Part shown: positions 15,234 to 29,332 of the stretch, piece by piece
Numbering within the stretch: position 1 is the stretch's first letter
Layout: each line of letters opens with the position of its first letter
DNA from: an uncultured Gallionellaceae bacterium
GTDB lineage: Bacteria; Pseudomonadota; Gammaproteobacteria; Burkholderiales; Gallionellaceae
Assembly: GCA_964532405.1 (NCBI GenBank)
Contig: CAZHIC010000007.1
Location: forward strand, 6,721 to 70,720
Reading direction: 5' to 3'
DNA length: 64,000 nucleotides
Notes under the pieces: generated by a model
The model's input: only the letters and a program-made list of their open reading frames with translations
Databases searched by the model: none
Told to the model about the DNA's origin: nothing
Program-made: the position numbers and the translations under genes

Positions 15234-15974
15234 ATTTGAGGCCGAAACTTGACCAACAGGCTAAGGAGTAACTCGCTAGTTCATCGCAAAATGGCAAGGC
15301 AGCACACTCAACGAGCGACAAAGCTATCAAGCGCATTTTGCCGACCTGTGCGCCTTGGTCGGTGCCGAGACACCAACTCCCGCCAGCGCGGACAACTACT
15401 GTTACGAACGCGGTGTCGCCAAGACGGGCAGCAAACATGGCTGGGCGGACGTGTGGAAGCGCGGCTGTTTCGCCATCGAATACAAAGCGCCGGATCACAA
15501 TCTAGATGCCGCGCTCAAACAACTGATGACCTACGCGCTGGCGCTGGACAACCCGCCGCTGCTGGTGGTGTGCGACACACAGATCATCCAGATACACACT
15601 CACTTCACCAACGCACCCAGCGAAATTCACACCATCGCGCTGCAAGACCTAGCCTTACAAACCAACCTCGACAAGTTGCGCTGGCTTTTCACCGCACCCG
15701 ACAAATTTCATCCGCAGCGCACTATCGCGCAGATCACCGAAGAGGCCGCAGGCAAATTCGCCGCCCTCGCGCAGTCGTTGAATGGCAGAGGCCATGCCCC
15801 GCCTGCGGCAGCGGAAACTTTCTCTATCTTGCGCTGCGTGCCTTAAAAGACCTCGAACACAAAGCCAACCTCGAGTGCGCTTCTTGTGGAGTGCAGCGAC
15901 GTGTCGCTGCAAAGCGCAGTCGAGACTGCGCACTCCAAACATAACAGCGCTACAGGGAGCGAGCCACGTATGAA

Positions 15975-16012
15975 CTCCTCCCCTGACAAGGGGAGGCTGG
16001 GAGGGGTTGAGG
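15975..16012 (+). repeat. REP (CTCCCC-TGACAA-GGGGAG type) inside the MTase pseudogene
   Basis: About 35 of 38 nt match the reverse complement of 57935-57968. It translates as [11 protein letters not shown]. Confidence 0.75.
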
Positions 16013-16375
16013 TTTCTGAAGCGCAATGGCCCACCGTCGATGCCATCATCGGCAATCCGCCTTTCCTAGGCGACAAAAAAATGCACGGCGAATTAGGTGA
16101 TGACTACACCGAAGCCCTGCGCAAATGCTACGCAGAGCGTGTGCCGGGCGGCGCAGACTTGGTCACCTACTGGTTTGAGAAAGCACGCGCACAGATCGAA
16201 GCGGACAAGTGCCTGCGCGCCGGATTGGTTGCCACCAACTCGCTACGGCAAAAGCGCAACCGCCCGGTGTTGGAACGTATATTGGAGAGTGGGAATATTT
16301 TCAATGCGTGGAGCGATGAGGAATGGATTAACGAAGGCGCAGCGGTGCGCGTATCGCTGGTGTGTTTTGATGTTA

Positions 16376-16414
16376 CCCCTCGCCCGCAGGCGGGAGAGGG
16401 GCAAGGGGAGAGGG
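16376..16414 (+). repeat. REP inserted in frame in the MTase ORF
   Basis: CCTCGCCCGC-AG-GCGGGAGAGG, with arms identical to 6862-6883. It translates as PRPQAGEGQGER. Confidence 0.75.
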
Positions 16415-17128
16415 TCTGCATTCTCAACGGAGCGCCTGTCACCACCATCCATGCCGACCTCACCGCAGGCGGCAATGGCGGGAGCGACTTGACGAGTGCG
16501 CAGCCGCTCAAACAAAACGCTGGATGGTCATACTTCGGCTTATGTCTGGCAGGCGCTTTCAAAGTCCCGAGTGAAATAGCACAAGCTTTGCTCAAGCTGC
16601 CCAACCCGCATGGCAAGCCGAACTCGGATGTGCTGCTTCCCATCTACAACGGCTCCGACATCACGCGCCGCTGGGCGGGCGATTGGGTGATCGACTTTGC
16701 CCTGCTGGATGAACAGCAAGCCGCACTATACGAAGCACCGTTCGCCTACGTGGTGGAGCACGTCAAGCCTGTGCGCGCCAGCAACCGCGAAGCGTCGCGC
16801 GCCGAAAAATGGTGGCGGCATGGCAGAGCGCGTCCAGAACTGCGCAGCAAACTTGCCAGTCTGCAACGCTACATCGCCACACCGGAAACGGCCAAGCATC
16901 GCTTCTTCGTCAGCTTCCCGATCAGCGTCGCGCCGGAACACAGCCTCATCGTCATCCCTGTGGATAGCGATGCAGTGTTCGGCCTCTTGTCCTCGCGTCT
17001 GCATACCGTTTGGGCGTTAGCCAAAGGCGGGCGCATGGGAATGGGCAACGACCCGCGCTACAACTCCTCGCTTATTTTCGATACTTTTCCATTCCCCGAA
17101 GGGCTAGCTCCCGCCGATACCATTCCCT

Positions 17129-17227
17129 CCGTTCGCCCTGAGCTTGTCGAAGGGTGTACGGACGCGCAACCCGTTCATGCCGCTTCGACTAGCTCTGGAC
17201 AGGCTTCGACAAGCTCAGCACGAACGG
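17129..17227. repeat. About 100-bp palindromic MITE-like element, in frame in the MTase ORF
   Basis: The arms are CCGTTCGCCCTGAGCTTGTCGAAGG (17129-17153) and GGCTTCGACAAGCTCAGCACGAACGG (17202-17227). It translates as VRPELVEG...ASTSSARTG. Confidence 0.7.
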
Positions 17228-17566
17228 GGGAACGTGATGCGATTGTCGCCGCCGCACAAGCATTGAGCCAACTCCGTGACAACTGGCTCAATCCACCCGA
17301 ATGGACAGATTGGGTGCGCACATCCGAAGAAGAAAAAGCAGGCTATCCCTTGCGCCCCGTTGCCAAACCCGGACACGAAGCCGACCTGAAAAAACGCACC
17401 CTCACCAACCTCTACAATGCCCGCCCCGCATGGCTGGACAATGCACACAAAACGTTGGATGCCGCTGTCGCCAAGGCTTACGGCTGGAACGACTACACGC
17501 CGGAAATGCCGGATGAGGAAGTTTTGCGGCGGTTGTTGGCGTTGAATTTGGCACGCTAGGTTTCCT

Positions 17567-18325
17567 ATGAAATTCAGAGACATCACAGTTGGCGCGTATT
17601 CAAGGCTACACGAGCTGATTGCTTCGCGTAGTGAGCCTCCGTGCGTGCCATTTCTAGGGTACGAGTATCCGAAAGACCAGCCAGATTTCATCTATGGCTG
17701 GCAAGAGCAGGATTTCACGCGAGAGCTTGTTAATGCCTTCAATCAGTACGCCCTTTGGGTAGGTCGAGTTGGATTATGAGAGGAGGTATTGCGCGACTAC
17801 TCGGAGGACGAAGTTCTTGAACTTCGTCTTGAATTCACAACGCTCCCTCTTGATTACTGCCTTTCTTTCCCACAAAAATTTAAGTCTCGAATCGTCTACT
17901 GTGCGACTCATCTGTGCTACATGAAGGGAGTCGCCGAAAATCTTGTATCGAAGGAGTGTGCTCGCCCTGACGATAAAATAAATATGGGTGCCTTGGTCGA
18001 TGTTGCGAAGCATTGGTCTTCAGGCGCAAAGCTTATAGCAACATTAGGAGATATTGACGCACAGCAATATCGTGAATCCACGGACAACTATCGCAACAAG
18101 GCACAACACCGTCATCCGCAACGGCTGGACTACGGCCATACAACAAATGTTGTACAAAGTTTTCCGCCCGGCTATTCCGTTAGTTATACCTTCGGTGAGT
18201 CCCCTCCGTTGGTTACCAGCGATGCCTTGCCTATCTTGGCGGCGGAAGCGGATCGTATGAGAGCTGTTTTCTTTGCATATAGGGCTTTGGTTGATGAGCA
18301 CGGTAGTATCAAAAGTAAAGCCTAA
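17567..18325 (+). pseudogene. Unknown-function gene of 252 codons, interrupted by an in-frame TGA at 17777-17779
   Basis: The track ORFs 17567-17779 and 17789-18325 share a reading frame and are separated only by TGA GAG GAG GTA. The TTG at 17789 has AGGAGG only 2 nt upstream. GC is about 40%. The gene starts 8 nt after the MTase stop. I recognise no motif. Confidence 0.45.
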
Positions 18326-18397
18326 TCCATTTTACAAACACTGCCGCAACAATAATATGTATTGCCGCTAATCCCAAAACGGGACTGAAATGCGCCT

Positions 18398-18700
18398 ATG
18401 CGTGTGATCACCCTATCAACCCTTAAAGCCTTTTGGGAAAACAATCCGAGTCATCTGGATGCACGCGAGCCGTGCCTCGCGTGGTATCGGCAAGTGCTAG
18501 TAGCTGATTGGGCTTCACCCGCTGCGGTGAAGGGGAGCTTTGGTAATGCCAGCATTCTTAAAGACGGGTGGGGGGTGTTCAACATCGCAGGTAACAAATA
18601 CCGGCTGGTGGTGTGAATCAATTACACTTACCGTGTAATGTATGTTCGCTTCATCGGCACACACAAGCAGTATGACGCGATAGATGCGCAAACGATATGA
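18398..18700 (+). pseudogene. higB: HigB-family toxin with an in-frame TGA at 18614-18616
   Basis: The sequence [39 protein letters not shown] is colinear with E. coli HigB FNVGGNELRVVAMVFFESQKCYIREVMTHKEYD. The 27 codons after the stop remain in frame up to TGA 18698. Confidence 0.7.
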
Positions 18701-18709
18701 GGTGCAAAT

Positions 18710-19084
18710 ATGGACATTAAACCAATCAAGACCAAGGCGGATTACCGTGCCGCCCTCAAAGATATTGAGGGATTGATGACGGCGCGCGCCAATACGCCGG
18801 AAGGCGAGCGGCTGGATGTGCTGGTGACGCTGGTGGAAGCATACGAACGCAAGCATTATCCAATGGAGTTGCCCGATCCGATTGAGGCGATCAAGTGCCG
18901 CATGGAAAGCTTGGGGCTGAAGCCGAAAGATTTACAGCCGATGATCGGTGGACTGAATCGCGTGTATGAGGTGCTGGCTTACACGCGCCCGCTGACGCTG
19001 CCGATGATTCGCCGTTTGCATGAAGGGCTGGGCATTCCGGCGGAATGTTTGATTAAATCGTCACAGCATCAGCAGGCGGCTTGA
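18710..19084 (+). CDS. higA: HigA-family antitoxin (HTH)
   Basis: Contains IKTKADYRAALKDIEGLM...LVTLVEAYE plus a C-terminal HTH (LKPKDLQPMIGGLNRVYEVLAYTRPLTLPMIRRLHEGLGIP). It lies directly downstream of higB. Confidence 0.8.
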   Translation: MDIKPIKTKADYRAALKDIEGLMTARANTPEGERLDVLVTLVEAYERKHYPMELPDPIEAIKCRMESLGLKPKDLQPMIGGLNRVYEVLAYTRPLTLPMIRRLHEGLGIPAECLIKSSQHQQAA

Positions 19085-19115
19085 CTGAGATTTTCCGGCA
19101 ATCCGGTCTTTGGGT

Positions 19116-19298
19116 CTAGATCGCGGATACCGTCGCCAACGGTAGGAACAAAGTCAACGGTGAGTTTGGCAAAGGAATAAAACCGTGATACTGGTAAAAG
19201 GCCGCTACTTTTTTATCCTTGGCATCAACGACCATCGAGTAGCCGCCCAGATTGTACTGACGAAGGGACAGCGAAAAGGATTGACGAAGCTGGTGAAC
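19116..19298 (-). pseudogene. C-terminal stub of a GNAT-family (TacT-like) toxin
   Basis: My translation of the - strand gives ...LGGYSMVVDAKDKKVAAFYQYHGFIPLPNSPLTLFLPLATVSAI*. This is typical of the C-terminus of DUF1778-associated GNAT toxins. Upstream it is cut by stops and the IS630 remnant. Confidence 0.5.
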
Positions 19299-19299
19299 T

Positions 19300-20040
19300 C
19301 AAAACTCACCAGCGTGAGGCTGAAAAGCTTGGCATTAGCGCGGCCAGCGTAGCGCGCCAATGGCCTCAAGCCCCACCTCGCGAGGGGTTTCAAAATATCG
19401 CGCGACCCGGAATTCGTCGAGAAACTCGAAGATATTGTGGGGTTGTATTTAACCCCACCGGAACATGCCATCGTGCTGTGTTGTGATGAGAAAAGTCAGA
19501 TCCAAGCATTGGATAGAACGCAGCCCGGATTGGCACTCAAGAAGGGGGCATTCACGATGACAAGCGTCACGGCACAATGACATTATTTGCTGCACTGAAT
19601 GTGCTCGGCGGCCAAGTGATCGTCGGGTGTCAGCAACAACACCGCCATGTCGAGTGGTTGAATTTTCTGAAGAAAATTGATCGTGAAACGCCCAAAGGAA
19701 AGAGGCTAATCTGATCGTGGACAACTACGCAACACACAAACATCCGGTCGTGATAGCGTGGCTGGAAAAGCATCCGCGCTTTGTCATGCACTTCACGCCG
19801 ACATCCGCGTCCTGGCTGAACAGGGTTGAGCGTTTCTTCCGGGACATCACCACGGAACGGCTACGTCGTGGTGTGTTCACCCGCGTGCCGGAACTCATCG
19901 CGGCCATCAATGCGTACATCGGTCACCACAACACTAAACCAAAGCCTTTTATCTGGACTGCCAAGGCAAAAGATATATTGCCAAAGGTCATTCGTGCCAA
20001 CGAGCGTTTAAGTTCCAAACAGAATGCAACACTACGCTAG
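19300..20040 (+). mobile_element. IS630-family transposase pseudogene (5'-truncated, with internal deletion and frameshift)
   Basis: Fragments lie in different frames: [58 protein letters not shown] and [14 protein letters not shown]...[21 protein letters not shown]. The 19717-20040 ORF follows with DNYATHKHP...SWLNRVERFF. Confidence 0.85.
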
Positions 20041-20150
20041 AACTTGGGTTGCTACCATTGCGCAGCGGTGCGTTTACGTGTGACTTGCGGCAAGGCGTAA
20101 TGGGCGATTTGGCGGCTAGCCAATTTTGCTTTGGCTCGAACTGGGGCGGC
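20036..20150. repeat. Direct repeat copy A (contiguous)
   Basis: 20036-20060 matches 21449-21473 at 24 of 25 nt. 20061-20150 matches 22043-22132 at about 80-85%, with a 37-nt perfect core TTTGGCGGCTAGCCAATTTTGCTTTGGCTCGAACTGG. Confidence 0.85.
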
Positions 20151-20235
20151 GTGAGCCATCAAGTTTTTCTTGGCCAACTTAGCCAGGTTGAGTTACACTG
20201 CGCGCATCTTTCAAACATCTCCGAGGAGTCGAATC

Positions 20236-20481
20236 GTGCAATGCAATATGCTCGAAGCCAAAAGCCAACTTTCCAAACTGGTGCAAGCTGCATTGGCAGG
20301 CGAGGATGTCGTTATCGCCAACAAGGGCGTGCCTGTCGTCAGGTTGGTTAAAGTGGATGCACTAAGCGTTGCGCGCAAGCCCGGTGCATGGTCGGGTCTG
20401 TCCAAGGCAAAAGTAGATTGGGACTCTGCCACTACCAATGCAGCCATCGCTGAAATGCTCGGTGGAAACAAATTGCTGTGA
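20236..20481 (+). CDS. vapB: Phd/YefM-type antitoxin
   Basis: Contains MLEAKSQLSKLVQAALAGEDVVIANKGVPVVRLV. There is a GAGGAG Shine-Dalgarno 7 nt before GTG 20236; ATG 20248 is an alternative start. It overlaps the PIN toxin gene by 4 nt. Confidence 0.8.
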   Translation: MQCNMLEAKSQLSKLVQAALAGEDVVIANKGVPVVRLVKVDALSVARKPGAWSGLSKAKVDWDSATTNAAIAEMLGGNKLL

Positions 20482-20858
20482 AGCGCTATTTGATCGACAC
20501 CCACTTGGCGTACTGGTGGATGACGGCAGATGCGCGCTTGGGCAAAGCAACACAACGCATCATCGCCAAATCCGACATCGTGGTGAGCACCGCAAGTCTA
20601 TGGGAAATGGTACTGAAAAATAGCAAAGGCAAATTACCCTTGCCGCAAGGTTCGCTCACCGAACAACTCGAAGCGCAGGGGTTTATTCTGCTGCCGATTT
20701 TACCGCGACATATCGAAGCAGCGCGCAATTTGAATTGCGCCCACAACGACCCATTCGACAGATTACTTATTGCTCAGGCGCATGATGAAAGACTCACACT
20801 GCTTACGCGTGATGCGGTGATACTTGGGTTGGGGTTGAACGGGGTAGAGGAGGGATGA
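20478..20858 (+). CDS. vapC: PIN-domain toxin (VapC family)
   Basis: Contains YLIDTH..., SLWEM and NDPFDRLLIAQA. The acidic PIN residues are in order. It is 126 aa. Confidence 0.85.
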   Translation: MKRYLIDTHLAYWWMTADARLGKATQRIIAKSDIVVSTASLWEMVLKNSKGKLPLPQGSLTEQLEAQGFILLPILPRHIEAARNLNCAHNDPFDRLLIAQAHDERLTLLTRDAVILGLGLNGVEEG

Positions 20859-20873
20859 TGCAAAAACACGGGC

Positions 20874-20902
20874 AATAAAAAAGCCCGTCGCGAGGACGGG
20901 CT
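20874..20902 (-). terminator. Rho-independent terminator for the 20938-21534 gene
   Basis: On the - strand the sequence is GCCCGTC-CTCGC-GACGGGC followed by TTTTTTATT. Confidence 0.75.
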
Positions 20903-20937
20903 GGTGTGGCGCACTTCATGTTTGGAGAAGTTTCAGA

Positions 20938-21534
20938 TTATTTTTTAGCTTCGTCAGCCGGAAATTGTGTGATTTTTTGACCGTGTTCGAGAATGAAGGA
21001 AACTTCAGTTTTGCCGCTATTGTTAAGGCTGGTGTTGATGTCCACGCATATTATGTTATCACCCAAATCTGGGTTGTTTTTCGAGGTTCTCCAATAAAAT
21101 TTTCCAACTGCGGTACCTGGCATTCGTTTGTCGTCGTCGCACCCGCTAGGGTTTTCACCGGACAGTAAGGTGGTTGCTCTTCTGAAAATGCAATAGTTGC
21201 CACGTTTTTGGATGCCTACTTCCACAAAAGATGTCTCGTCATTGTTTGGGTTGTTGCTACTTACTACCACTTGAATTTCAGGGTCTTGTAACCGATAGCG
21301 TTCTACTCTCCCAGTAGTCTCGTTTTTCTTTTCGATAAACTTAGGGCGCACCGTTACTTGTGGTGGTGAATCAAACTGAAACGGTAATGTCTCGAAATAA
21401 CTTCTGAGGGCGTTATCACAATCAGAAAAATCCTTTTTATGGGACTGAGCTAGAACTTGGGTTACTACCATTGACTCTGCCATAGAAAGCCCGGAGTAAA
21501 ACAGAGCAATAATTGCGATGATTAACTTATTCAT
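20938..21534 (-). CDS. Secreted protein of unknown function (198 aa)
   Basis: It has a signal peptide (MNKLIIAIIALFYSGLSMA-ES), about 42% GC and its own terminator. I recognise no motif. Confidence 0.6.
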   Translation of the reverse strand: MNKLIIAIIALFYSGLSMAESMVVTQVLAQSHKKDFSDCDNALRSYFETLPFQFDSPPQVTVRPKFIEKKNETTGRVERYRLQDPEIQVVVSSNNPNNDETSFVEVGIQKRGNYCIFRRATTLLSGENPSGCDDDKRMPGTAVGKFYWRTSKNNPDLGDNIICVDINTSLNNSGKTEVSFILEHGQKITQFPADEAKK

Positions 21535-21556
21535 GCAGGTTTCCTTTTGAGTGTGG

Positions 21557-22237
21557 TTACAGATGTAGGGTTTTTAACTGAACGCTAAGAACTCCAGCCC
21601 AGATGATCCACATCAGATACATGTAAATACCCATCAAGGGTAGTGCAATAAGAGTGAGTACACAGCGATTCATTTGGAACTGTTGCAGTATGGTGGCAGC
21701 GCCATGCACTAGATTCCAAGTTAGCAACCCGATGCCGAATATAACGAGAATTAAAGCGAGGAAGTCATTGCACGATGGGCACAAAGATAAATTGCCCTGT
21801 AAGTGACGCGTGGCAGGTACGGCAGCCACAATGGAGGCGCAAATTATGACGTTTCGGAGGTTGTTGAAAACAAAATTGATTAACTCGTCTTGTGGAAGCT
21901 TTTTCGGGGTGGGAGACGATGATTCTGTTTCGGATTGTTTATTCGAGGGCACAGTGGCTTCCTTCTGACGTGGGCTTGGTGGGTCAATAGAATTGGCAAA
22001 ACACGGGCACTGTAAGTCAGGGGGGGGGGGGGGTATGTCAAGCGCAGTGGTGCGTTTATGCGAGGCTTGCGACGGGGTGTAATGGGTGGTTTGGCGGCTA
22101 GCCAATTTTGCTTTGGCTCGAACTGGGTCGGCATGATAAACTCGCCCGCTGTTTTTAAAGCCTTTTAGGAAGCCGCCACAGATGGAACAATTCGCTAAAG
22201 AAACACTGTCCGTTAGTCTCGAAGAGGAGATGCGCAA
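21557..22237 (-). CDS. Three-TM membrane protein; start uncertain (ATG 22237 inside gyrA, or GTG 21952)
   Basis: The C-terminal half has three hydrophobic helices: [26 protein letters not shown] and [28 protein letters not shown] 21952 has an AGGAAG Shine-Dalgarno 6 nt upstream and would give 131 aa. The long form reads through the C14 tract as PPPPP. Confidence 0.5.
22020..22033. repeat. G14 (C14 on the coding strand) homopolymer
   Basis: Counted directly: g22020 plus 13 g at 22021-22033. Confidence 0.95.
22043..22132. repeat. Direct repeat copy B, distal part (the proximal 25 nt lie at 21449-21473)
   Basis: See copy A. The two parts of copy B are separated by 569 bp. Confidence 0.85.
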
Positions 22238-24779
22238 GTCTTACCTCGAATATGCGATGAGCGTGATCGTCGGGCGTGCCTTGCCCGATGCCCGCGACGG
22301 CTTGAAGCCGGTGCATAGGCGCGTGCTGTTCGCCATGCACGAGTTATCCAATGACTGGAACCGCGCGTACAAGAAATCGGCGCGTATCGTCGGCGACGTG
22401 ATCGGTAAGTACCATCCGCACGGCGACACGGCGGTGTACGACACCATCGTGCGTATGGCGCAGGACTTTTCTCTGCGCTACCCGCTGGTGGACGGGCAGG
22501 GTAACTTCGGTTCGGTGGACGGCGATAACGCGGCGGCGATGCGTTACACCGAAATCCGCATGGCGCGCATCGCGCACGAGTTGCTGGCCGATCTGGATAA
22601 AGAAACGGTGGACTTCGGGCCGAACTACGACGGCTCCGAGCATGAGCCGCTGGTGTTCCCTGCACGTTTTCCCAATCTGTTGGTCAATGGCTCCTCCGGT
22701 ATCGCCGTGGGTATGGCGACCAACATTCCGCCGCACAATCTTTCCGAAGTGCTCGATGCCTGTTTCGCGCTGCTCAAAAATCCCGAAATCGATATCGAAG
22801 ATTTGATCGACATCGTTCCCGCGCCGGACTTTCCGACGGCGGGATTCATCTACGGTCTGGCGGGCGTGAAGGAAGGTTACCGCACCGGTCGCGGTCGCGT
22901 GGTGATGCGCGGACGCACGCACTTCGAGGATTTGGACAAGGCCGGTACGCGTCAGGCCATCATCATCGACGAGCTGCCGTATCAGGTGAACAAGGCCAAT
23001 CTGCTCATCAAGGTGGGCGAGTTGGTGCGCGAGAAGAAGATCGAGGGCATTACCGAGATTCGCGACGAGTCGGACAAGTCCGGTATGCGTGCGGTGATCG
23101 AGTTGCGGCGCGGCGAGATGCCGGAAGTTGTGCTCAATCATTTGTACAAACACACGCAGTTGCAGGACAGCTTCGGCATGAACATGGTGGCCTTGCTGGA
23201 CGGGCAACCGAAGTTGCTCAACCTGAAAGAATTCCTCGACGCGTTCCTGCGTCACCGCCGCGAAGTCGTGACGCGCCGCACTATTTTTGAACTGCGCAAA
23301 GCGCGTGAACGCGGCCACGTTTTGGAAGGTCTGGCGGTTGCGCTGTCCAATGTGGACGAGATCATCGCGCTCATCAAAGCGGCAGCGACTCCGGCTATTG
23401 CCAAGCAAGAGCTGATGGCACATGCGTGGCATTCGTCGCTGGTGGAAGAGATGTTGAGCCGCGTGAGCGATGCGTCGCGTCCTGAAACGTTGTCGCCCGA
23501 GTTTGGCATGCTGGGCAGCGGCAATCAGCGCGCTTACAAACTGTCCGATGTACAGGCGCAAGCGATTCTGGAATTGCGTCTGCAACGCCTGACGGGTCTG
23601 GAGCAAGACAAGATCGTCGGCGAATACCGTGAAGTGATGGATAAGATTAACGACCTGCTCGATATTTTGGCGAAGCCGGAGCGCGTGACGCAGATCATCA
23701 CCGACGAGCTGGTGGCGATCAAATCTCAATACGGCGACAAACGCCGCAGCGAGATCATCACCCACACGCAAGACATGAGCATGGAAGATTTTGTGACGCC
23801 GGAAGATGTGGTGGTGACGCTGTCGCACGGCGGTTACATGAAGGCGCAGAAGCTGGACGAATACCGTGCGCAGAAGCGCGGCGGACGCGGCAAGCAAGCC
23901 GCATCGACCAAGGAAGACGATTTCGTCGACAACCTGTTCATCGCCAACACGCACGATTACATCCTGTGCTTCTCCAGTCGCGGTCGCGTGTACTGGCTCA
24001 AAGTGTATGACGTGCCGCAGGGTACCCGCATCAGCCGAGGCAAGCCGATTGTGAATCTGTTGCCGCTGGAAGAGGGCGAAAAGATCAACGCCATTCTGGC
24101 GGTGAAGGAATTCCCTGAAGACAAGTTTGTGTTCTTCGCCACCACCGACGGTACGGTGAAAAAGACGCCGCTGTCCGACTTCGCCAACCCGCGCAAGGCC
24201 GGCATCATCGCCATCAATCTGGACGAGGGCGACTTCCTCATCGGCGTGGCGATCACCGACGGCAAGCACGACGTGATGCTGTTCTCCGACGGCGGCAAGG
24301 CCGTGCGCTTCGACGAAAACGATGTGCGTTCGATGGGCCGTGTGTCGCGCGGTGTGCGCGGTATGCGACTCACCAAGGGCGGCAAAGTCATCGCGCTGCT
24401 GGTGGCCGAAAACGAACAGCAGACAGTGCTGACCGCGACCGAAAACGGTTACGGCAAGCGCACGCCTATCGTCGAGTACACCCGCCATGGTCGCGGCACG
24501 CAGGGCATGATGGCGATTCAGACTTCCGAGCGTAACGGCAAGGTGGTGGCGGCGACGCTGGTCAGCACCGAAGACGAGATCATGCTGATCGGCACCAACG
24601 GCGTGCTGATCCGCACCCGCGTCAAAGAGATTCGCGAGATGAGCCGCGCTACACAGGGCGTGACGCTGATCAATCTGGAGAAGGGCGAGAAGTTGGCCGG
24701 ATTGAGCCGTATCGCCGAGACGGAAGATGACGGCGCGGAAGACCTTTCGGACGATGTTGCAGACGACGACGCAGAGTAA
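22182..24779 (+). CDS. gyrA: DNA gyrase subunit A
   Basis: Contains [35 protein letters not shown]...AAMRYTE. It is 865 aa with an acidic tail. Confidence 0.98.
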
Positions 24780-24783
24780 CCCC

Positions 24784-25968
24784 ATGCTGACTGAAGCACA
24801 ATTGGCCGAGTTGTTGTCCGATCTGGAATCGGATCGTGTCGAGCGCACGATTTCCGTTTCCGATACGGATAAATATTGCCAGGCGGTTTGTGCGTTTGCC
24901 AATGACTTGCCCAATCATCGCCAGCCGGGTTATTTGTTGATTGGTGTTGGGGATGACGGAAGTCTGTCTGGCTTGAGTGTGACGGATCAGCTATTGCAAA
25001 ATCTTGGCGCGATACGCGCTAACGGCAATGTATTGCCGCAGCCCGTGATGAGTGTGGCGAGGTTTAAGTTGCAGGGTGGCGAGGTTGCCGTTGTGGAGGT
25101 GCTGCCATCCGACATGCCTCCAGTGCGTTATAAAGGGCGCGTATATATTCGCGTCGGCCCACGCAAGGCAATTGCCAATGAGCAGGAAGAGCGGGTGTTA
25201 ACCGAGAGGCGTGTTGCACGGGCGCATACTTTTGATGTGCTGCCTTTTCCCGAAGCGAAACTTGCGGATTTGTCTATTCGCTTGTTTGGTGAATACCGCG
25301 CTCAGGTGGTTGCACCCGAAGTGATTGAGGCGAACCACCGAACAGTCGAAGAGCAATTGGCTTCCCTGCGGTTGTTTGATCTGTCAAAGCAATGTCCAAC
25401 GACTTCCGGCATTCTTTTGTTCGGCAATAATCCGCGATATTTTTTGCCCGGTGCATACGTGCAATTTTTGCGCTTCCCCGGTACGAAGATGACTGACATG
25501 CCGGTAGACCAAGCGGAATTTTCCGGGGATATGCGTACCGTGCTTGACGGTTTGCGCGATAAATTTCGAGCCTGCAACCAAGTGGGAATGAAGCCGGGAA
25601 AAAATTTTAAGGATCAGTTGTTGCCCGATTATCCCGAATGGTCGGTGCGCGAGTTGCTGCATAACGCTGTGATACACCGCGATTATCAGTCTAATACTCC
25701 TATTCGTTTTTATTGGTTTGCAGACCGTATCGAGATACAAAGTCCCGGCGGCTTATACGGAGAGGTTACGCCGGAAACCATTATGAGCCGGAACAGTTAC
25801 CGTAATCCGGTTATGGCTGAAGCGTTGAAGGCCATGGGCTATGTAAACCGTTTCGGTTTTGGTATTCAGCAAACGCAAAATTTATTGGAAGAAAACGGCA
25901 ATCCCCCAGCGGAATTTAGTTTTGAAGACCGGGTTGTCGCGGTGACGATTCGACGGGGAACGCGATGA
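24784..25968 (+). CDS. AlbA_2 (Schlafen-type) plus HATPase_c_4 domain protein
   Basis: The N-terminus ESDRVERTIS...AVCAFANDLPNHRQPGYLLIGVGDDGSLSGL fits the AlbA_2 pattern. The C-terminus RELLHNAVIHRDYQSNTPIRFYWFADRIEIQSPGGL fits the HATPase_c_4 pattern. The ATG is 5 nt after the gyrA TAA. Confidence 0.75.
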   Translation: MLTEAQLAELLSDLESDRVERTISVSDTDKYCQAVCAFANDLPNHRQPGYLLIGVGDDGSLSGLSVTDQLLQNLGAIRANGNVLPQPVMSVARFKLQGGEVAVVEVLPSDMPPVRYKGRVYIRVGPRKAIANEQEERVLTERRVARAHTFDVLPFPEAKLADLSIRLFGEYRAQVVAPEVIEANHRTVEEQLASLRLFDLSKQCPTTSGILLFGNNPRYFLPGAYVQFLRFPGTKMTDMPVDQAEFSGDMRTVLDGLRDKFRACNQVGMKPGKNFKDQLLPDYPEWSVRELLHNAVIHRDYQSNTPIRFYWFADRIEIQSPGGLYGEVTPETIMSRNSYRNPVMAEALKAMGYVNRFGFGIQQTQNLLEENGNPPAEFSFEDRVVAVTIRRGTR

Positions 25969-26957
25969 GAACCATTGCCTTCTTTAATAACAAAGGCGGT
26001 GTCGGGAAGACCTCCTTGGTGTATCACTTGGCATGGATGTTCGCAGACCGTGGAATTGAAACGCTGGCTGTAGATCTTGATCCGCAGGCGAATCTAACCT
26101 CCATGTTTCTCAATGAGGAGCGACTGGAAGAGTTGTGGCCGGATGGTGAGCATCCAGATACTGTTTATGGGGCTATCCGCCCGATTTTGCGAGGTGTAGG
26201 TGATATTGCCGAGCCGCACATTGAAAAAATTACGGATATGCTGGGGTTGATTCCTGGCGATCTTGGTTTATCCCGTTTTGAAGACAAGCTCTCGGATGCT
26301 TGGCCTCGTTGTCAGTTGGGCGATGAATCTGCTTTTCGTACTATGACCGCTTTTCATCGTCTTGTGCAACATGGTGCAGATCGAGGTGCGGAGTTGGTGT
26401 TGATTGATGTCGGCCCAAATTTAGGGGCGATTAACCGATCTGCGTTGATTGCCTCTGATCAAGTTTGTTTGCCTCTGGCACCGGATTTATTTTCTTTGCA
26501 AGGCCTCAAGAATCTTGGGCCAACACTGAATGAGTGGCGTGAAGTTTGGAAAGAGCTATTGCAGAAAGCACCTGCTGATGTCCCGATGCCCAAAGGAGCG
26601 ATGCAGCCAGTAGGCTATATTGTTATGCAGCATGGGATTCGAGACAGTCGTCCGGTAAAAGCCTACCAACGTTGGTTAGACAAGATTCCTCAAGTTTATC
26701 GTGGGTCTGTGTTGAACGAGGCAGTTACAGGTAACATGCCTGCACTAGCCGATGACCCATATATGCTTGCACTGTTGAAGCATTATCGCAGCCTGATGCC
26801 GATGGCGATGGAAGCAAACAAGCCGATTTTTTTTCTGAAGTCCGCTGATGGTGCTATTGGGTCGCATCAGGAGGCAGTTGCAAGTTGTTATAAAGATTTT
26901 GAGAAATTGGCGGCAAAAATAGCCGCTAACGCAGGTATTGCATTCCCGAATAAATAA
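25965..26957 (+). CDS. ParA/MinD-like P-loop ATPase (330 aa)
   Basis: It has the deviant Walker A FFNNKGGVGKTS, then AVDLDPQANLT and VLIDVGPNLG. ATGA overlap with the upstream gene. Confidence 0.8.
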   Translation: MRTIAFFNNKGGVGKTSLVYHLAWMFADRGIETLAVDLDPQANLTSMFLNEERLEELWPDGEHPDTVYGAIRPILRGVGDIAEPHIEKITDMLGLIPGDLGLSRFEDKLSDAWPRCQLGDESAFRTMTAFHRLVQHGADRGAELVLIDVGPNLGAINRSALIASDQVCLPLAPDLFSLQGLKNLGPTLNEWREVWKELLQKAPADVPMPKGAMQPVGYIVMQHGIRDSRPVKAYQRWLDKIPQVYRGSVLNEAVTGNMPALADDPYMLALLKHYRSLMPMAMEANKPIFFLKSADGAIGSHQEAVASCYKDFEKLAAKIAANAGIAFPNK

Positions 26958-26977
26958 ACTAGTGGAGAGGAATTGAG

Positions 26978-28060
26978 ATGACGATCTATAACTTTAGCGC
27001 AGGCCCCGCCGTATTGCCGAAAGAAGTTTTGTTGCAGGCACAGGCGGAACTCATCGACTGGCACGGCAGCGGTATGTCGGTGATGGAGATGTCGCATCGC
27101 GGCAAGGAATACATGGGCATTCACGCCCAAGCCGAAGCCGATTTGCGCGAGTTGATGGGCATCCCCGCCAACTACAAAGTGCTGTTCCTGCAAGGTGGAG
27201 CGCATCTGCAATTTTCGATGATCCCGTTCAATTTGTTGCGCGGCAAGCTCTCTGCCGACTATGTGAATACCGGCGAATGGTCGAAAAAGGCCATAGCCGA
27301 AGCGAAGAAGTTCTGCAACGTGAACGTGGTGGCGAGCAACGCCGACAAGAACTGCACTTACGTTCCGGCTTTTAATACCTGGAAGCTGGATAAGAATGCG
27401 GCTTACGTGCACTACACGTCGAACGAAACCATCGGCGGTGTCGAGTTCAACTGGATGCCCAATACGGGCGATGTGCCGCTGGTGGCGGATATGTCTTCCA
27501 ATATGCTGTCGCGCTCTGTGGATGTGTGGAAATACGGTTTGATTTATGCGGGTGCGCAGAAGAACATCGGCCCTGCTGGTTTGACGCTGGTGATCGTGCG
27601 CGAAGACCTGATAGGCCATGCCGATCCGCGTTTGCCGACCATGCTGGACTATAAGACGCATGCTGAAAACGATTCGATGTACAACACGCCGCCCACATTC
27701 GCCGTCTATATGGCGGGCTTGGTGTTCCAATGGCTGAAGAAGAACGGCGGCATCGGTGTGATGGAGCAAAAAAACATCGCCAAAGCGAACCTGTTGTATG
27801 CGGCGATAGATGCCAGCAACGGTTTCTACAGCTGCCCGGTGAACAAGGCGGATCGCTCGCGCATGAACGTGCCGTTCACGTTGAAGGATGCCAATCTGGA
27901 TGGCGAATTTCTCAAGCAGGCGGATGCGCGCGGCTTGTTGCAATTGAAGGGGCATCGTTCCGTCGGCGGTATGCGCGCCTCCATTTACAACGCGATGCCG
28001 CTGGCAGGCGTGCAGGCGCTGGTGGATTTCATGCACGAGTTCGCCCAGAAAAATGGCTGA
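26978..28060 (+). CDS. serC: Phosphoserine aminotransferase
   Basis: Contains [16 protein letters not shown]...MSHRGKEY...[11 protein letters not shown]. It is 360 aa. Confidence 0.95.
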
Positions 28061-28066
28061 AGAATC

Positions 28067-28125
28067 GGTGGGCACACCCAAAGGGTGCAAGAACCTCATT
28101 CGAGGCAAAAACGTGCCCACCCTAC
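28067..28125 (-). repeat. GTAG-headed REP (long hairpin)
   Basis: GGTGGGCAC...GTGCCCACC-CTAC, with an inner hairpin CACCC-AAA-GGGTG. Confidence 0.7.
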
Positions 28126-28141
28126 TCAAATAGGCAAATAA

Positions 28142-29332
28142 ATGGCTAACATTTTTAAAATTCTCACGCTAAACAAAATTTCTTCAGTGGGTCTGAAGCG
28201 TCTGCCTGCTTCGCGTTATCAAGTCGGCGACAAGGTGGTGCAGCCCGATGCGATTCTGGTGCGTTCGCAGAACATGCTGGAGATGGATATTCCGGCCAGC
28301 GTGCTGGCCATCGCGCGCGCCGGCGCGGGAACCAACAACGTGCCGGTGAAGAAGATGAGCGCGCGCGGTGTGCCGGTGTTCAATGCGCCGGGCGCGAACG
28401 CGAATGCGGTGAAGGAACTGGTCGTCACCGGCATGTTGCTGGCTTCGCGCAACATCGTCCCCGCGTTGCGTTTCACGGCGGGTTTGCAGGGTGACGATGC
28501 GACGCTGCACAAGCGGGTCGAGGACGGCAAGAAAGATTACGCCGGAACCGAGTTGCGTGGCCGCACATTGGGCATCATCGGGCTGGGGGCTATCGGGCGC
28601 TTGGTGGCGGATACCGCTATCGGCCTCGGTATGAAAGTGATCGGCTTCGATCCCGAAATCACCGTGGAAGCGGCGTGGAGCCTATCGTCGCAAGTGAAGA
28701 AGGCATCCAGCATCGAAGACCTGCTCAAGCACAGTGATTTCGTGACGCTGCATGTGCCGTTGCTGGATGCGACGCGGAACCTCATCGACGACAAGCGCGT
28801 GGAAATCATGAAATCCGACGCAGTGCTGCTGAATTTTTCGCGCGATGCCATCGTCAACGAAGACGCTGTCATTGCCGGGCTGGCGAGTAAACATCTGCGT
28901 TGCTACGTGTGCGATTTCCCGAGCAATAAGACCATCAGCAACGACAAGATCATTGCGTTGCCGCATCTGGGGGCTTCCACCGCAGAAGCGGAAGAGAACT
29001 GTGCGGTGATGGTAGCGGAGCAACTGCGCGAATATCTGGAACACGGCAATATCACCAACACGGTGAATTTCCCCAATGTGGCCATGCCGCGCGAATCTAT
29101 ATTCCGTTTGGCGATCGCCAACACCAACGTGCCGAACATGCTGGGGCAAATTTCCACCTCGCTGGCGCAGGCAGGTATCAACATCCATAACATGACGAAC
29201 AAATCGCGCGGCGAGATGGCCTACACGCTGGTGGATATCGATACCGCGCCGCCGGATGCTTTGATCGCGCAGATCGCCGCTATTCCCGGCGTGCTGATGG
29301 TGCGCGCGCTGCCGTTGGAGGCGGACGAATGA
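28142..29332 (+). CDS. serA: D-3-phosphoglycerate dehydrogenase with a C-terminal ACT domain
   Basis: It has the 2-hydroxyacid dehydrogenase NAD motif GIIGLGAIGRLVA and HLGAST, with an ACT-like C-terminus. Confidence 0.8.
   Translation: MANIFKILTLNKISSVGLKRLPASRYQVGDKVVQPDAILVRSQNMLEMDIPASVLAIARAGAGTNNVPVKKMSARGVPVFNAPGANANAVKELVVTGMLLASRNIVPALRFTAGLQGDDATLHKRVEDGKKDYAGTELRGRTLGIIGLGAIGRLVADTAIGLGMKVIGFDPEITVEAAWSLSSQVKKASSIEDLLKHSDFVTLHVPLLDATRNLIDDKRVEIMKSDAVLLNFSRDAIVNEDAVIAGLASKHLRCYVCDFPSNKTISNDKIIALPHLGASTAEAEENCAVMVAEQLREYLEHGNITNTVNFPNVAMPRESIFRLAIANTNVPNMLGQISTSLAQAGINIHNMTNKSRGEMAYTLVDIDTAPPDALIAQIAAIPGVLMVRALPLEADE

Follow-up and report, generated by a model that had tools for sequence, protein, structure and literature searches.

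A mobile gene pair encoding a Schlafen-GHKL protein and a ParA-like ATPase, inserted between gyrA and serC, is a candidate two-gene abortive-infection module

Introduction

Schlafen nucleases are antiviral effectors found from bacteria to humans. Of 5,930 prokaryotic Schlafens, 34% are fusions of the Schlafen-HisKinase type, and other Schlafen fusions are tRNases activated by phage, such as RorSlfn5, in which residues E15 and D20 are essential (Taboada et al., 10.1101/2025.07.24.666596). The unit composed of a Schlafen (SLFN) and a GHKL domain has been named 'Schlatpase' and is present in 58.6% of 103,533 proteins; in one of them, RzAgo, the SLFN tRNase is activated through ATP-driven tetramerisation (Kuzmenko et al., 10.64898/2026.05.29.728809). 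At least 1017 taxa have proteins that combine Schlafen, HisKinase and a winged helix-turn-helix (wHTH) as accessories of BREX or BREX-related loci (PMC12839542), and a whole-word search of the main text of that article found no mention of a ParA partner. Here, we describe a cassette of two overlapping genes lying between gyrA and serC in a 64,000-nucleotide stretch of DNA (hereafter the window) from an uncultured Gallionellaceae bacterium. Gene 1 codes for a stand-alone Schlafen-GHKL protein of 394 amino acids (aa) and gene 2 for a ParA/MinD-class ATPase. To our knowledge, no stand-alone Schlatpase has been characterised, and no trigger is known for the Schlafen and GHKL combination without a sensor domain, which is the commonest bacterial architecture. 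The ParA-like ATPase described below is a concrete candidate for the missing sensor or regulator.

Results

The two genes are inherited as one unit

A scan based on an alignment of gene 1, retaining one genome per species, returned 80 loci from at least 14 phyla, to which two loci fetched directly were added (82 in total; individual loci are designated L followed by a number). A gene 2 homologue lies immediately downstream of gene 1 in 62 of the 82 loci, and an identical 4-nt overlap joins the two genes in 51 of these 62. Each protein has thousands of homologues (about 8000 for gene 1, with a typical length of 394 aa), and many gene 1 and gene 2 matches fall on contigs of identical length. For 50 complete pairs, pairwise identity in one protein correlates with that in the other (Mantel r = 0.77, a value that none of 2000 permutations reached). 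When all flanking open reading frames (ORFs) were clustered, no third conserved gene emerged at the pair loci. Both IMG/VR viral contigs carrying a gene 2 homologue of more than 50% identity have gene 1 directly upstream. Gene 1 and gene 2 are thus one co-inherited unit, and the adjacency, shared overlap and correlated divergence bear out the co-inheritance of the two families that a preliminary description of this DNA, made from the sequence alone, had put forward for a neighbourhood census.

Most of the loci without gene 2 (14 of 20) encode longer gene 1 paralogues of 480-545 aa, mostly in Bacteroidota, whose distribution is complementary to that of the 394-aa ParA-paired form. These long paralogues are found at about positions 10001-11500 of L040, L042, L045, L054, L060, L064, L066, L068 and L073-L078. 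The one C-terminal extension that we examined, that of L045, corresponds to a Fic-type winged helix (4RGL, residues 250-337, 1e-17). In a Thiothrix metagenome-assembled genome (MAG; L024:10001-16426), a 394-aa gene 1 homologue is followed not by a ParA-like gene but by a second, canonical Schlafen-GHKL paralogue (motif ENSGIEFK), after which comes a gene for a P-loop protein of 1125 aa.

The pair is mobile and inserted at the gyrA-serC junction

Gene 2 of the window shares 80-88% identity with homologues in MAGs labelled Holophagaceae, Hydrogenophilales, Chlorobiaceae and Desulfobacteraceae, far more than expected from vertical descent between phyla, indicating that the cassette is mobile. The order gyrA-pair-serC recurs in five genome loci of the Gallionella/Nitrosomonadales type (L001, L003, L008, L009 and L012). 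A metagenome scan seeded with serC yielded 80 further loci; the pair is absent from all 80, and gyrA lies directly upstream of serC in about 45 of them. Since the closest relatives of the window, namely L092 (87% identity for gyrA and 90% for serC), L093, L095 and L097, have gyrA next to serC without the cassette, gyrA-serC is the ancestral order and the cassette is an insertion polymorphism. Together with the atypical composition of the cassette (see below), this arrangement in the relatives shows that the pair is not ancestral at this site.

Empty gyrA-serC sites contain 28-115 nt of intergenic DNA. At occupied sites, 4-9 nt precede gene 1 and 13-24 nt follow gene 2, with no hairpin. A hairpin followed by a T-run occurs right after gyrA at two empty sites (L093:4453-4515 and L095:831-919), so that gyrA and serC would be separate transcription units there, joined only when the cassette is present. 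The cassette therefore seems to have taken the place of the gyrA terminator, in keeping with expression by read-through from gyrA. Consensus scanning of positions 21500-28500 of the window detected a single sigma-70-like site on the plus strand, upstream of gyrA (21965-21993), and neither a further sigma-70-like site nor a convincing terminator from there to serC. The cassette most likely extends the gyrA transcript and is expressed through read-through; the earlier proposal that it rides on gyrA transcription is consistent with these scans and with the hairpins seen at the two empty sites and at none of the occupied ones. Across the wider family, 48 of 59 loci have an upstream neighbour in the same orientation as the pair, and in 23 of these it ends no more than 60 nt from gene 1. 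An integron-cassette origin of this promoterless insertion was rejected because an attC site would not fit into the 20-nt spacer downstream.

The composition of the two genes is foreign to the window. GC content is 51.0% in gene 1 and 48.0% in gene 2, compared to 58.9% in gyrA, where it peaks at 63%; the contrast first reported is real, although smaller than claimed, as gyrA had been credited with about 65%. GC at third codon positions is 0.532 in gene 1 and 0.444 in gene 2 versus 0.57-0.78 in the 23 other window genes. Their codon-usage distances (0.174 and 0.233, respectively) are the two largest among the 25 window genes, the others not exceeding 0.142.

Homologues of the pair are embedded in Hma and BREX loci

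In Pseudomonas aeruginosa, where a gene 1 homologue occurs on about 100 contigs, the pair lies between a SNF2/NOV_C helicase gene and a DUF1156 methylase gene, followed by HEPN_AbiU2 and DUF499 ATPase genes, with a gene for a BrxR-like WYL regulator upstream. This pair, carried by more than 100 P. aeruginosa assemblies, shares 67% identity with that of the window. The helicase and methylase correspond to HmaA and HmaB (PADLOC, E = 0); a MADS identity of this locus was considered and rejected because PADLOC assigns it to Hma. Pair homologues are embedded in six Hma loci in all, that of P. aeruginosa (L002) and five others (L021, L033, L043, L049 and L071). On viral contig L174, the pair is found between the PglX-like methylase gene and the PglZ-BrxL genes of a type-1 BREX system. 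Other neighbours of the pair include type I and type II restriction-modification (R-M) genes, PbeA, a DinG-type helicase and MazF. Core genes of Hma or BREX do not adjoin the pair in the window, where its neighbours are gyrA and serC. Partial PADLOC matches were limited to a domain-level match of gene 1 to the pAgo and Aga_SIR2 models and a 40-residue P-loop match of gene 2 to PDC-M28B.

Gene 1 is a Schlafen-GHKL protein

Pfam analyses confirmed the domain content announced for gene 1, an AlbA_2 domain combined with an HRDY-containing HATPase_c_4 domain. SLFN_AlbA_2 (PF04326) matches residues 15-129 with an E-value of 7e-18 (65.7 bits for a cut-off of 25.3) and HATPase_c_4 (PF13749) matches residues 306-389 with an E-value of 8e-17 (61.5 bits for a cut-off of 26); an IHRDY motif is present at residues 297-301. 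The Schlafen box CAFAND (residues 36-41) and the segment LIGVGDDG (51-59) are conserved across gene 1 loci. The acidic pair E15/E20 is present, and the canonical motif E-x4-(D/E)-x-K reads E-x4-E-R-T. In the GHKL half, which was assessed by sequence only, E290 and N294 of the N-box RELLHNAVIHRDY are invariant across the homologue alignment, as are P321, G322, G358 and G360. The E-x3-N spacing of the N-box equals that of E314/N318 in RzAgo, a comparison made by spacing alone with the two proteins unaligned.

The best match of gene 1 by both sequence and fold is PDB 3LMM, with a sequence alignment spanning residues 273-375. The AlphaFold2 model of gene 1 has an overall predicted local distance difference test score (pLDDT) of 61 and is confident only in the N-terminal domain (pLDDT 80-90). 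After 3LMM, which it matches along the full length, the model matches the SAMD9 tRNase and the RNase domains of SLFN13, SLFN11, SLFN14 and SLFN5. With the altered motif, catalysis by gene 1 is plausible rather than assured.

At the gyrA-serC site itself, gene 1 is a mosaic. The allele shared by the window and L003 and that of L001 and L009 (L001:6820-8004 and L009:3489-4673) are 83-90% identical over the first 120 aa or so, corresponding to the Schlafen domain, and 36-73% identical over the remainder, with gene 2 being 88-92% identical between the same alleles. These comparisons are the sole outliers of the plot of gene 1 against gene 2 divergence. The pattern suggests that the linker-GHKL part of gene 1 was replaced or has diverged rapidly between the two alleles.

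Gene 2 belongs to a ParA-like clade with a distinct C-terminal region

Gene 2 matches AAA_31 over residues 1-197 (4e-29, 102 bits) and CbiA (51.9 bits), both in excess of the cut-offs. Its ATPase core is intact (K10-GGVG-K15-T, D37-L-D39-PQ and D148), and the Walker A motif is nearly invariant among homologues; its initial assignment as a ParA/MinD ATPase with a deviant Walker A motif KGGVGKT therefore holds, with AAA_31 matched and the motif at residues 10-16. A profile built from 42 diverse homologues aligned with PDB 3pg5_A over positions 1-321 of 329 (E = 1.7e-47). PDB 3PG5 is an uncharacterised ParA-like protein from Corynebacterium diphtheriae. In contrast to this full-length match, Soj and ParA structures match just the first 200 or so residues of the profile, and an hhalign alignment of gene 2 with a manually entered Soj sequence ends at residue 195, indicating that the C-terminal region is a clade-specific extension. 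The preliminary description had found about 120 C-terminal aa that could not be assigned. There is indeed no Pfam match over this region, which measures about 135 aa, and a PDB search with the fragment returned nothing, but it belongs to a clade with a solved structure. Conservation with 3PG5 and in 42 of 42 homologues extends to W191, W195, P215, G217 and Y218 as well as to S276, L277, K286, G296, G299 and H301. Given the end of the Soj alignment and the empty fragment search, the alternative that this region is an ordinary ParA C-terminus with an insertion was not supported. The AlphaFold2 model of gene 2, computed from an alignment of 19 sequences at least 81% identical, was unusable (pLDDT 39.5).

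Gene 2 misses the cut-off of every partition family in NCBIfam, with scores far too low (71.6 versus 348 and 57.3 versus 180), and RepA and ParA_partition are among these models. No parS sequence within three mismatches was found anywhere in the window, and no ParB box II motif (GERRxRA) in its six frames, in agreement with the lack of parB/parS context initially noted.

Some gene 2 homologues have a degenerate Walker A motif, reading NNRGGVGTT or KGGVGNT in Chlorobiaceae and SQGGVGKT or STAGVGKT in others (L014:5106-6089, L015:2412-3392, L027:11182-12165, L049:8656-9645, L052:6730-7716 and L082:11188-12159), and the homologue of L082 lacks a recognisable N-terminal P-loop. Because the motif is degenerate in these lineages, ATP hydrolysis may have become dispensable or been lost there. 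The best PDB matches of the two genes, 3LMM (DIP2311) and 3PG5, are both C. diphtheriae proteins, which raised the idea of a deep link between Schlafen and ParA in that genus. This idea was dropped: in the strain examined, the 3PG5 gene stands alone amid housekeeping genes, and the surrounding 7 kb on either side contain no AlbA_2 gene.

Distant relatives of gene 2 have other effector partners

Full-length gene 2 relatives at 25-33% identity are paired with SIR2, HEPN_RiboL-PSP or RelA_SpoT proteins. Overlapping ParA-SIR2 pairs are carried by Salmonella, Spirosoma and Vibrio plasmids, and Paeniglutamicibacter has an adjoining ParA-SIR2 pair with an 81-nt gap; the SIR2 proteins of these pairs are similar to the SIR2 domains of ThsA, Dsr and LmuA. 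Burkholderia glumae plasmids carry ParA-HEPN_RiboL-PSP pairs. On seven viral contigs, the ParA gene is followed by a gene coding for a RelA_SpoT protein of about 225 aa (toxSAS-like). Effector swapping thus occurs in the 3PG5-like ParA clade, and the association of one ATPase clade with four kinds of toxic effectors is the pattern expected of a regulator or sensor of conflict systems.

The two-gene ParA-effector loci are L086:4001-5916, L087:4001-5886, L237:3001-4853, L091:7001-8892, L240:2995-4631 and L175:6001-7766, along with L176, L179, L181, L182, L184 and L185. The ParA gene comes first in the SIR2, HEPN and RelA_SpoT units, whether on plasmids, chromosomes or viral contigs, and second in the Schlafen pair. 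Relatives of gene 2 are also found in phages. In the P22-like phages ST160 (L084:3515-5068) and SE1, the ParA-like Orf23 gene sits between the c2 repressor gene and the antiterminator gene 24, a slot which is a classic moron/exclusion position in such phages, and the adjoining DUF3024 gene matches the PADLOC candidate PDC-S43 (2e-41). The Pf1 prophage carries a gene 2 homologue, Orf317. Solitary relatives on Pantoea and Vibrio plasmids adjoin recombinase genes, an Abi gene or a type I R-M system.

Layout of the locus and its surroundings

The features of the locus are listed in Table 1. The junctions agree with those initially outlined. The gyrA TAA and the gene 1 ATG are separated by 4 nt, the ATGA overlap (gene 1 TGA with gene 2 ATG) is at 25965-25968, and serC starts 20 nt further on. 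The cassette had been described as fused onto the 3′ end of gyrA, which is accurate as an operon-level juxtaposition but not as a gene fusion. A program-generated ORF list places the start of gene 1 at 24727, inside gyrA; we used 24784 because all homologues are 394 aa long and begin with MLT..QL.

Table 1. Features of the gyrA-cassette-serC locus in window coordinates.
Feature	Coordinates	Strand	Basis
gyrA, host gene (865 aa)	22182..24779	+	ORF; 83-87% identity to gyrA of relatives
CCCC spacer, 4 nt, from gyrA TAA to gene 1 ATG; left insertion junction	24780..24783	+	
Gene 1, stand-alone Schlafen-GHKL protein ('Schlatpase'), 394 aa	24784..25968	+	Pfam; PDB 3LMM best match
SLFN_AlbA_2 nuclease-type domain, residues 15-129	24826..25170	+	Pfam 65.7 bits; E15-x4-E20-R-T22, CAFAND box, GVGDDG
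GHKL / HATPase_c_4 ATP-binding domain, residues ~273-389	25600..25950	+	Pfam 61.5 bits; N-box RELLHNAVIHRDY, SPGG, RFGFG
Gene 2, ParA/MinD-class ATPase, 3PG5-like clade, 330 aa	25965..26957	+	Domain and profile matches
Deviant Walker A KGGVGKT, gene 2 residues 10-16, signature lysine K10	25992..26012	+	Translation
Clade-specific C-terminal region of gene 2, residues ~196-330	26550..26954	+	No Pfam match; conserved with 3PG5
20-nt spacer with serC ribosome-binding site GGAGAGG; right insertion junction	26958..26977	+	
serC, first gene of the downstream serC / serA-like / pheA / hisC block	26978..28060	+	

Downstream of the cassette, a gene coding for a serA-like D-2-hydroxyacid dehydrogenase of 396 aa (28142-29332) lies between serC and pheA and extends the usual serC-pheA-hisC block; L001, L003, L008 and L012 have it too. 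Upstream, a small mobilome and defence island (15249-21534) lies 1-6 kb from gyrA. It contains an ORF with MmeI-like methylase, target recognition domain and C-terminal parts (15886-17559), which may be a fragment or may be split with 15249-15944, a HigB toxin gene (18398-18616), a remnant of an IS630-type DDE_3 transposase gene (19717-20040), a Phd-PIN pair (20170-20858) and a low-GC stretch (about 0.42-0.47) with an unassigned 198-aa ORF on the minus strand (20938-21534).

Discussion

From the domain content of the two proteins, their pairing and co-evolution, the mobility of the pair, its insertion polymorphism, its embedding in Hma and BREX loci and the effector swapping in the ParA clade, with the small island upstream of gyrA as further defence context, we infer that the cassette functions in defence. 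We consider it probable that the two genes make up a stand-alone abortive-infection module, with a Schlafen tRNase that is gated by ATP and controlled by the ParA-like ATPase. Its co-occurrence, insertion status, lack of parB/parS and lack of a PADLOC model also support the preliminary interpretation of the pair as a candidate NTPase-based conflict module. Under such a model, a horizontally mobile pair would have inserted at the ancestral gyrA-serC junction of a Gallionella/Nitrosomonadales-type lineage and would be expressed by read-through from gyrA. Gene 1 would be the effector: by analogy with RzAgo and RorSlfn5, ATP-driven oligomerisation would activate the Schlafen RNase, which would then cut tRNA and thereby halt translation. 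To judge from its distribution, gene 2 would be the sensor or regulator, restraining the nuclease until infection. It might, for instance, link nuclease activity to the status of DNA or of the nucleoid, and it may provide in trans the DNA-binding role that the wHTH plays in the unpaired long gene 1 paralogues.

Several observations weigh against an abortive-infection role. A clear defence neighbour is present in just about one sixth of the loci, and when the two closest genes on either side of the pair were surveyed by Pfam, most belonged to unrelated housekeeping or metabolic families. The pair persists at gyrA-serC across several diverged lineages, which would also fit a domesticated role in the cell. 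In 81 of 85 clade sequences, the lysine of the canonical Schlafen motif is replaced by a threonine (T22 in gene 1) preceded by an arginine or a lysine, so that nuclease activity of gene 1 is not assured. The AlphaFold2 models of both proteins are poor. Only two of seven Enterobacterales Schlafen genes were protective, and the negatives may include a protein of the HisKinase type (10.1101/2025.07.24.666596). Finally, PADLOC-DB v2.0.0 contains no model for the pair or for the ParA clade of gene 2. Literature searches likewise found no published Schlafen-ParA, ParA-like-SIR2 or toxSAS-ParA pair; with neither a model nor a describing paper, the original statement that no two-gene AlbA_2-ParA system has been characterised stands.

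The pair could instead be a selfish addiction or stress module of the toxin-antitoxin (TA) kind, in which gene 1 would be a growth-arresting nuclease and gene 2 its ATP-dependent neutraliser, kept because its loss is costly. The tight overlap of the genes, the spread of the pair by horizontal transfer, its persistence at one chromosomal site in diverged lineages and the presence of TA modules near the cassette in the window are all in line with such a module, as is the partnership of related ParA-like genes with the toxin domains RelA_SpoT (toxSAS-like), HEPN and SIR2. We nevertheless regard it as rather unlikely, since neither protein looks like a typical type II TA partner, each being a large two-domain NTPase, and since the internal positions that the pair occupies in Hma and BREX operons suggest that it is integrated with defence. 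A TA role is moreover compatible with an abortive-infection role, making the addiction module a narrower version of the abortive-infection module rather than a true alternative to it.

The intact deviant Walker A motif, the DLDPQ motif and D148 of gene 2, its weak matches to partition families and to PHROG 164 ('ParA-like partition protein'), and the ability of AlbA-type domains to bind nucleic acids would also suit a ParA positioning or partition system, with the AlbA_2/GHKL protein acting as a ParB-like DNA-binding adaptor for a cargo or a chromosomal region. This is very unlikely given that the partition models are far from their cut-offs, that the window has neither parS nor a ParB motif, that the gene order is the reverse of parAB, and that the pair is missing from close relatives and is therefore not essential. 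Furthermore, no gene 2 homologue of at least 60% identity exists among 72,556 plasmids, and the partners of gene 2 relatives (SIR2, HEPN and RelA_SpoT) are not partition adaptors. That the cassette is a domesticated regulator, acting on the gyrA-serC operon or on DNA topology, seems extremely improbable. Such a regulator would account for the position of the cassette on the gyrA transcript, for the gyrA-cassette-serC order kept in at least six lineages, for the adjacency of a GHKL ATPase gene to gyrA and for the database names of gene 1 homologues ('transcriptional regulator', 'RecG-like helicase'). However, the gyrA context is limited to one clade, with unrelated neighbours in 57 other loci, the cassette is missing from the closest relatives, the 394-aa form of gene 1 has no HTH, and the composition of the cassette is foreign.

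Besides the abortive-infection reading of this cassette, we tentatively suggest, as a possibility that falls somewhat short of even chances, that 3PG5-like ParA/MinD ATPases form a widespread modular family of immune or abortive-infection systems, with one SIMIBI-class sensor or switch and interchangeable effectors (Schlafen-GHKL tRNase, SIR2 NADase, HEPN RNase and RelA_SpoT toxSAS), of which the gyrA-serC cassette would be the Schlafen-armed member. If true, this would be the first case of a ParA-type, possibly nucleoid-reading, ATPase acting as an immune regulator, and would point to a new NTPase class in bacterial immunity, one usually tied to DNA segregation. The locus would also show that a defence cassette lacking its own promoter can settle between two essential genes and rely on their transcription.

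The Schlafen-GHKL architecture and its BREX-like link are already published, and gene 1 is an effector of a known kind. Like pSlfn-HisKinase proteins and Schlatpases, including the SLFN-pAgo RzAgo, it has PF04326 and PF13749, the Schlafen box and the GHKL N-box, and its E15 and E20 occupy the same positions as E15 and D20 of RorSlfn5; unlike the canonical Schlafen motif, its motif (E-x4-E-R-T) has no lysine. It lacks an Argonaute, NACHT or HTH sensor domain and has an obligate ParA-like partner gene instead. Homologues of the pair are found inside Hma and type-1 BREX loci, as are the Schlafen accessories of BREX and of BREX-related DUF499/DUF1156 systems (Hma in PADLOC), whereas the pair of the window stands alone and its gene 1 has no wHTH.

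Gene 2 is homologous over its full length to PDB 3PG5, including the C-terminal region that canonical ParA and Soj lack, although the Corynebacterium gene, unlike gene 2, is solitary among housekeeping genes; we know of no function for any member of this clade. Its ATPase core with the deviant Walker A motif (residues 1-195) is common to ParABS, Soj, MipZ and McdA, and it differs from ParABS and orphan ParA proteins in having no ParB/parS, a divergent C-terminal third, scores under the family cut-offs and the distribution of a mobile accessory gene. In logic, the proposed module resembles SIR2-HerA and PARIS (AriA-AriB), in which an NTPase partner gates a toxic effector (NADase or nuclease), but gene 2 is a SIMIBI-class ATPase of the ParA/MinD dimer type rather than a HerA/FtsK hexamer or an ABC ATPase, and bears no sequence relationship to them. 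Set against PADLOC v2 and the searchable literature, a large, cross-phylum Schlafen-GHKL subfamily obligately coupled to a ParA-like ATPase, a 3PG5-like ParA clade with interchangeable effectors and a promoterless insertion at gyrA-serC all appear to be new.

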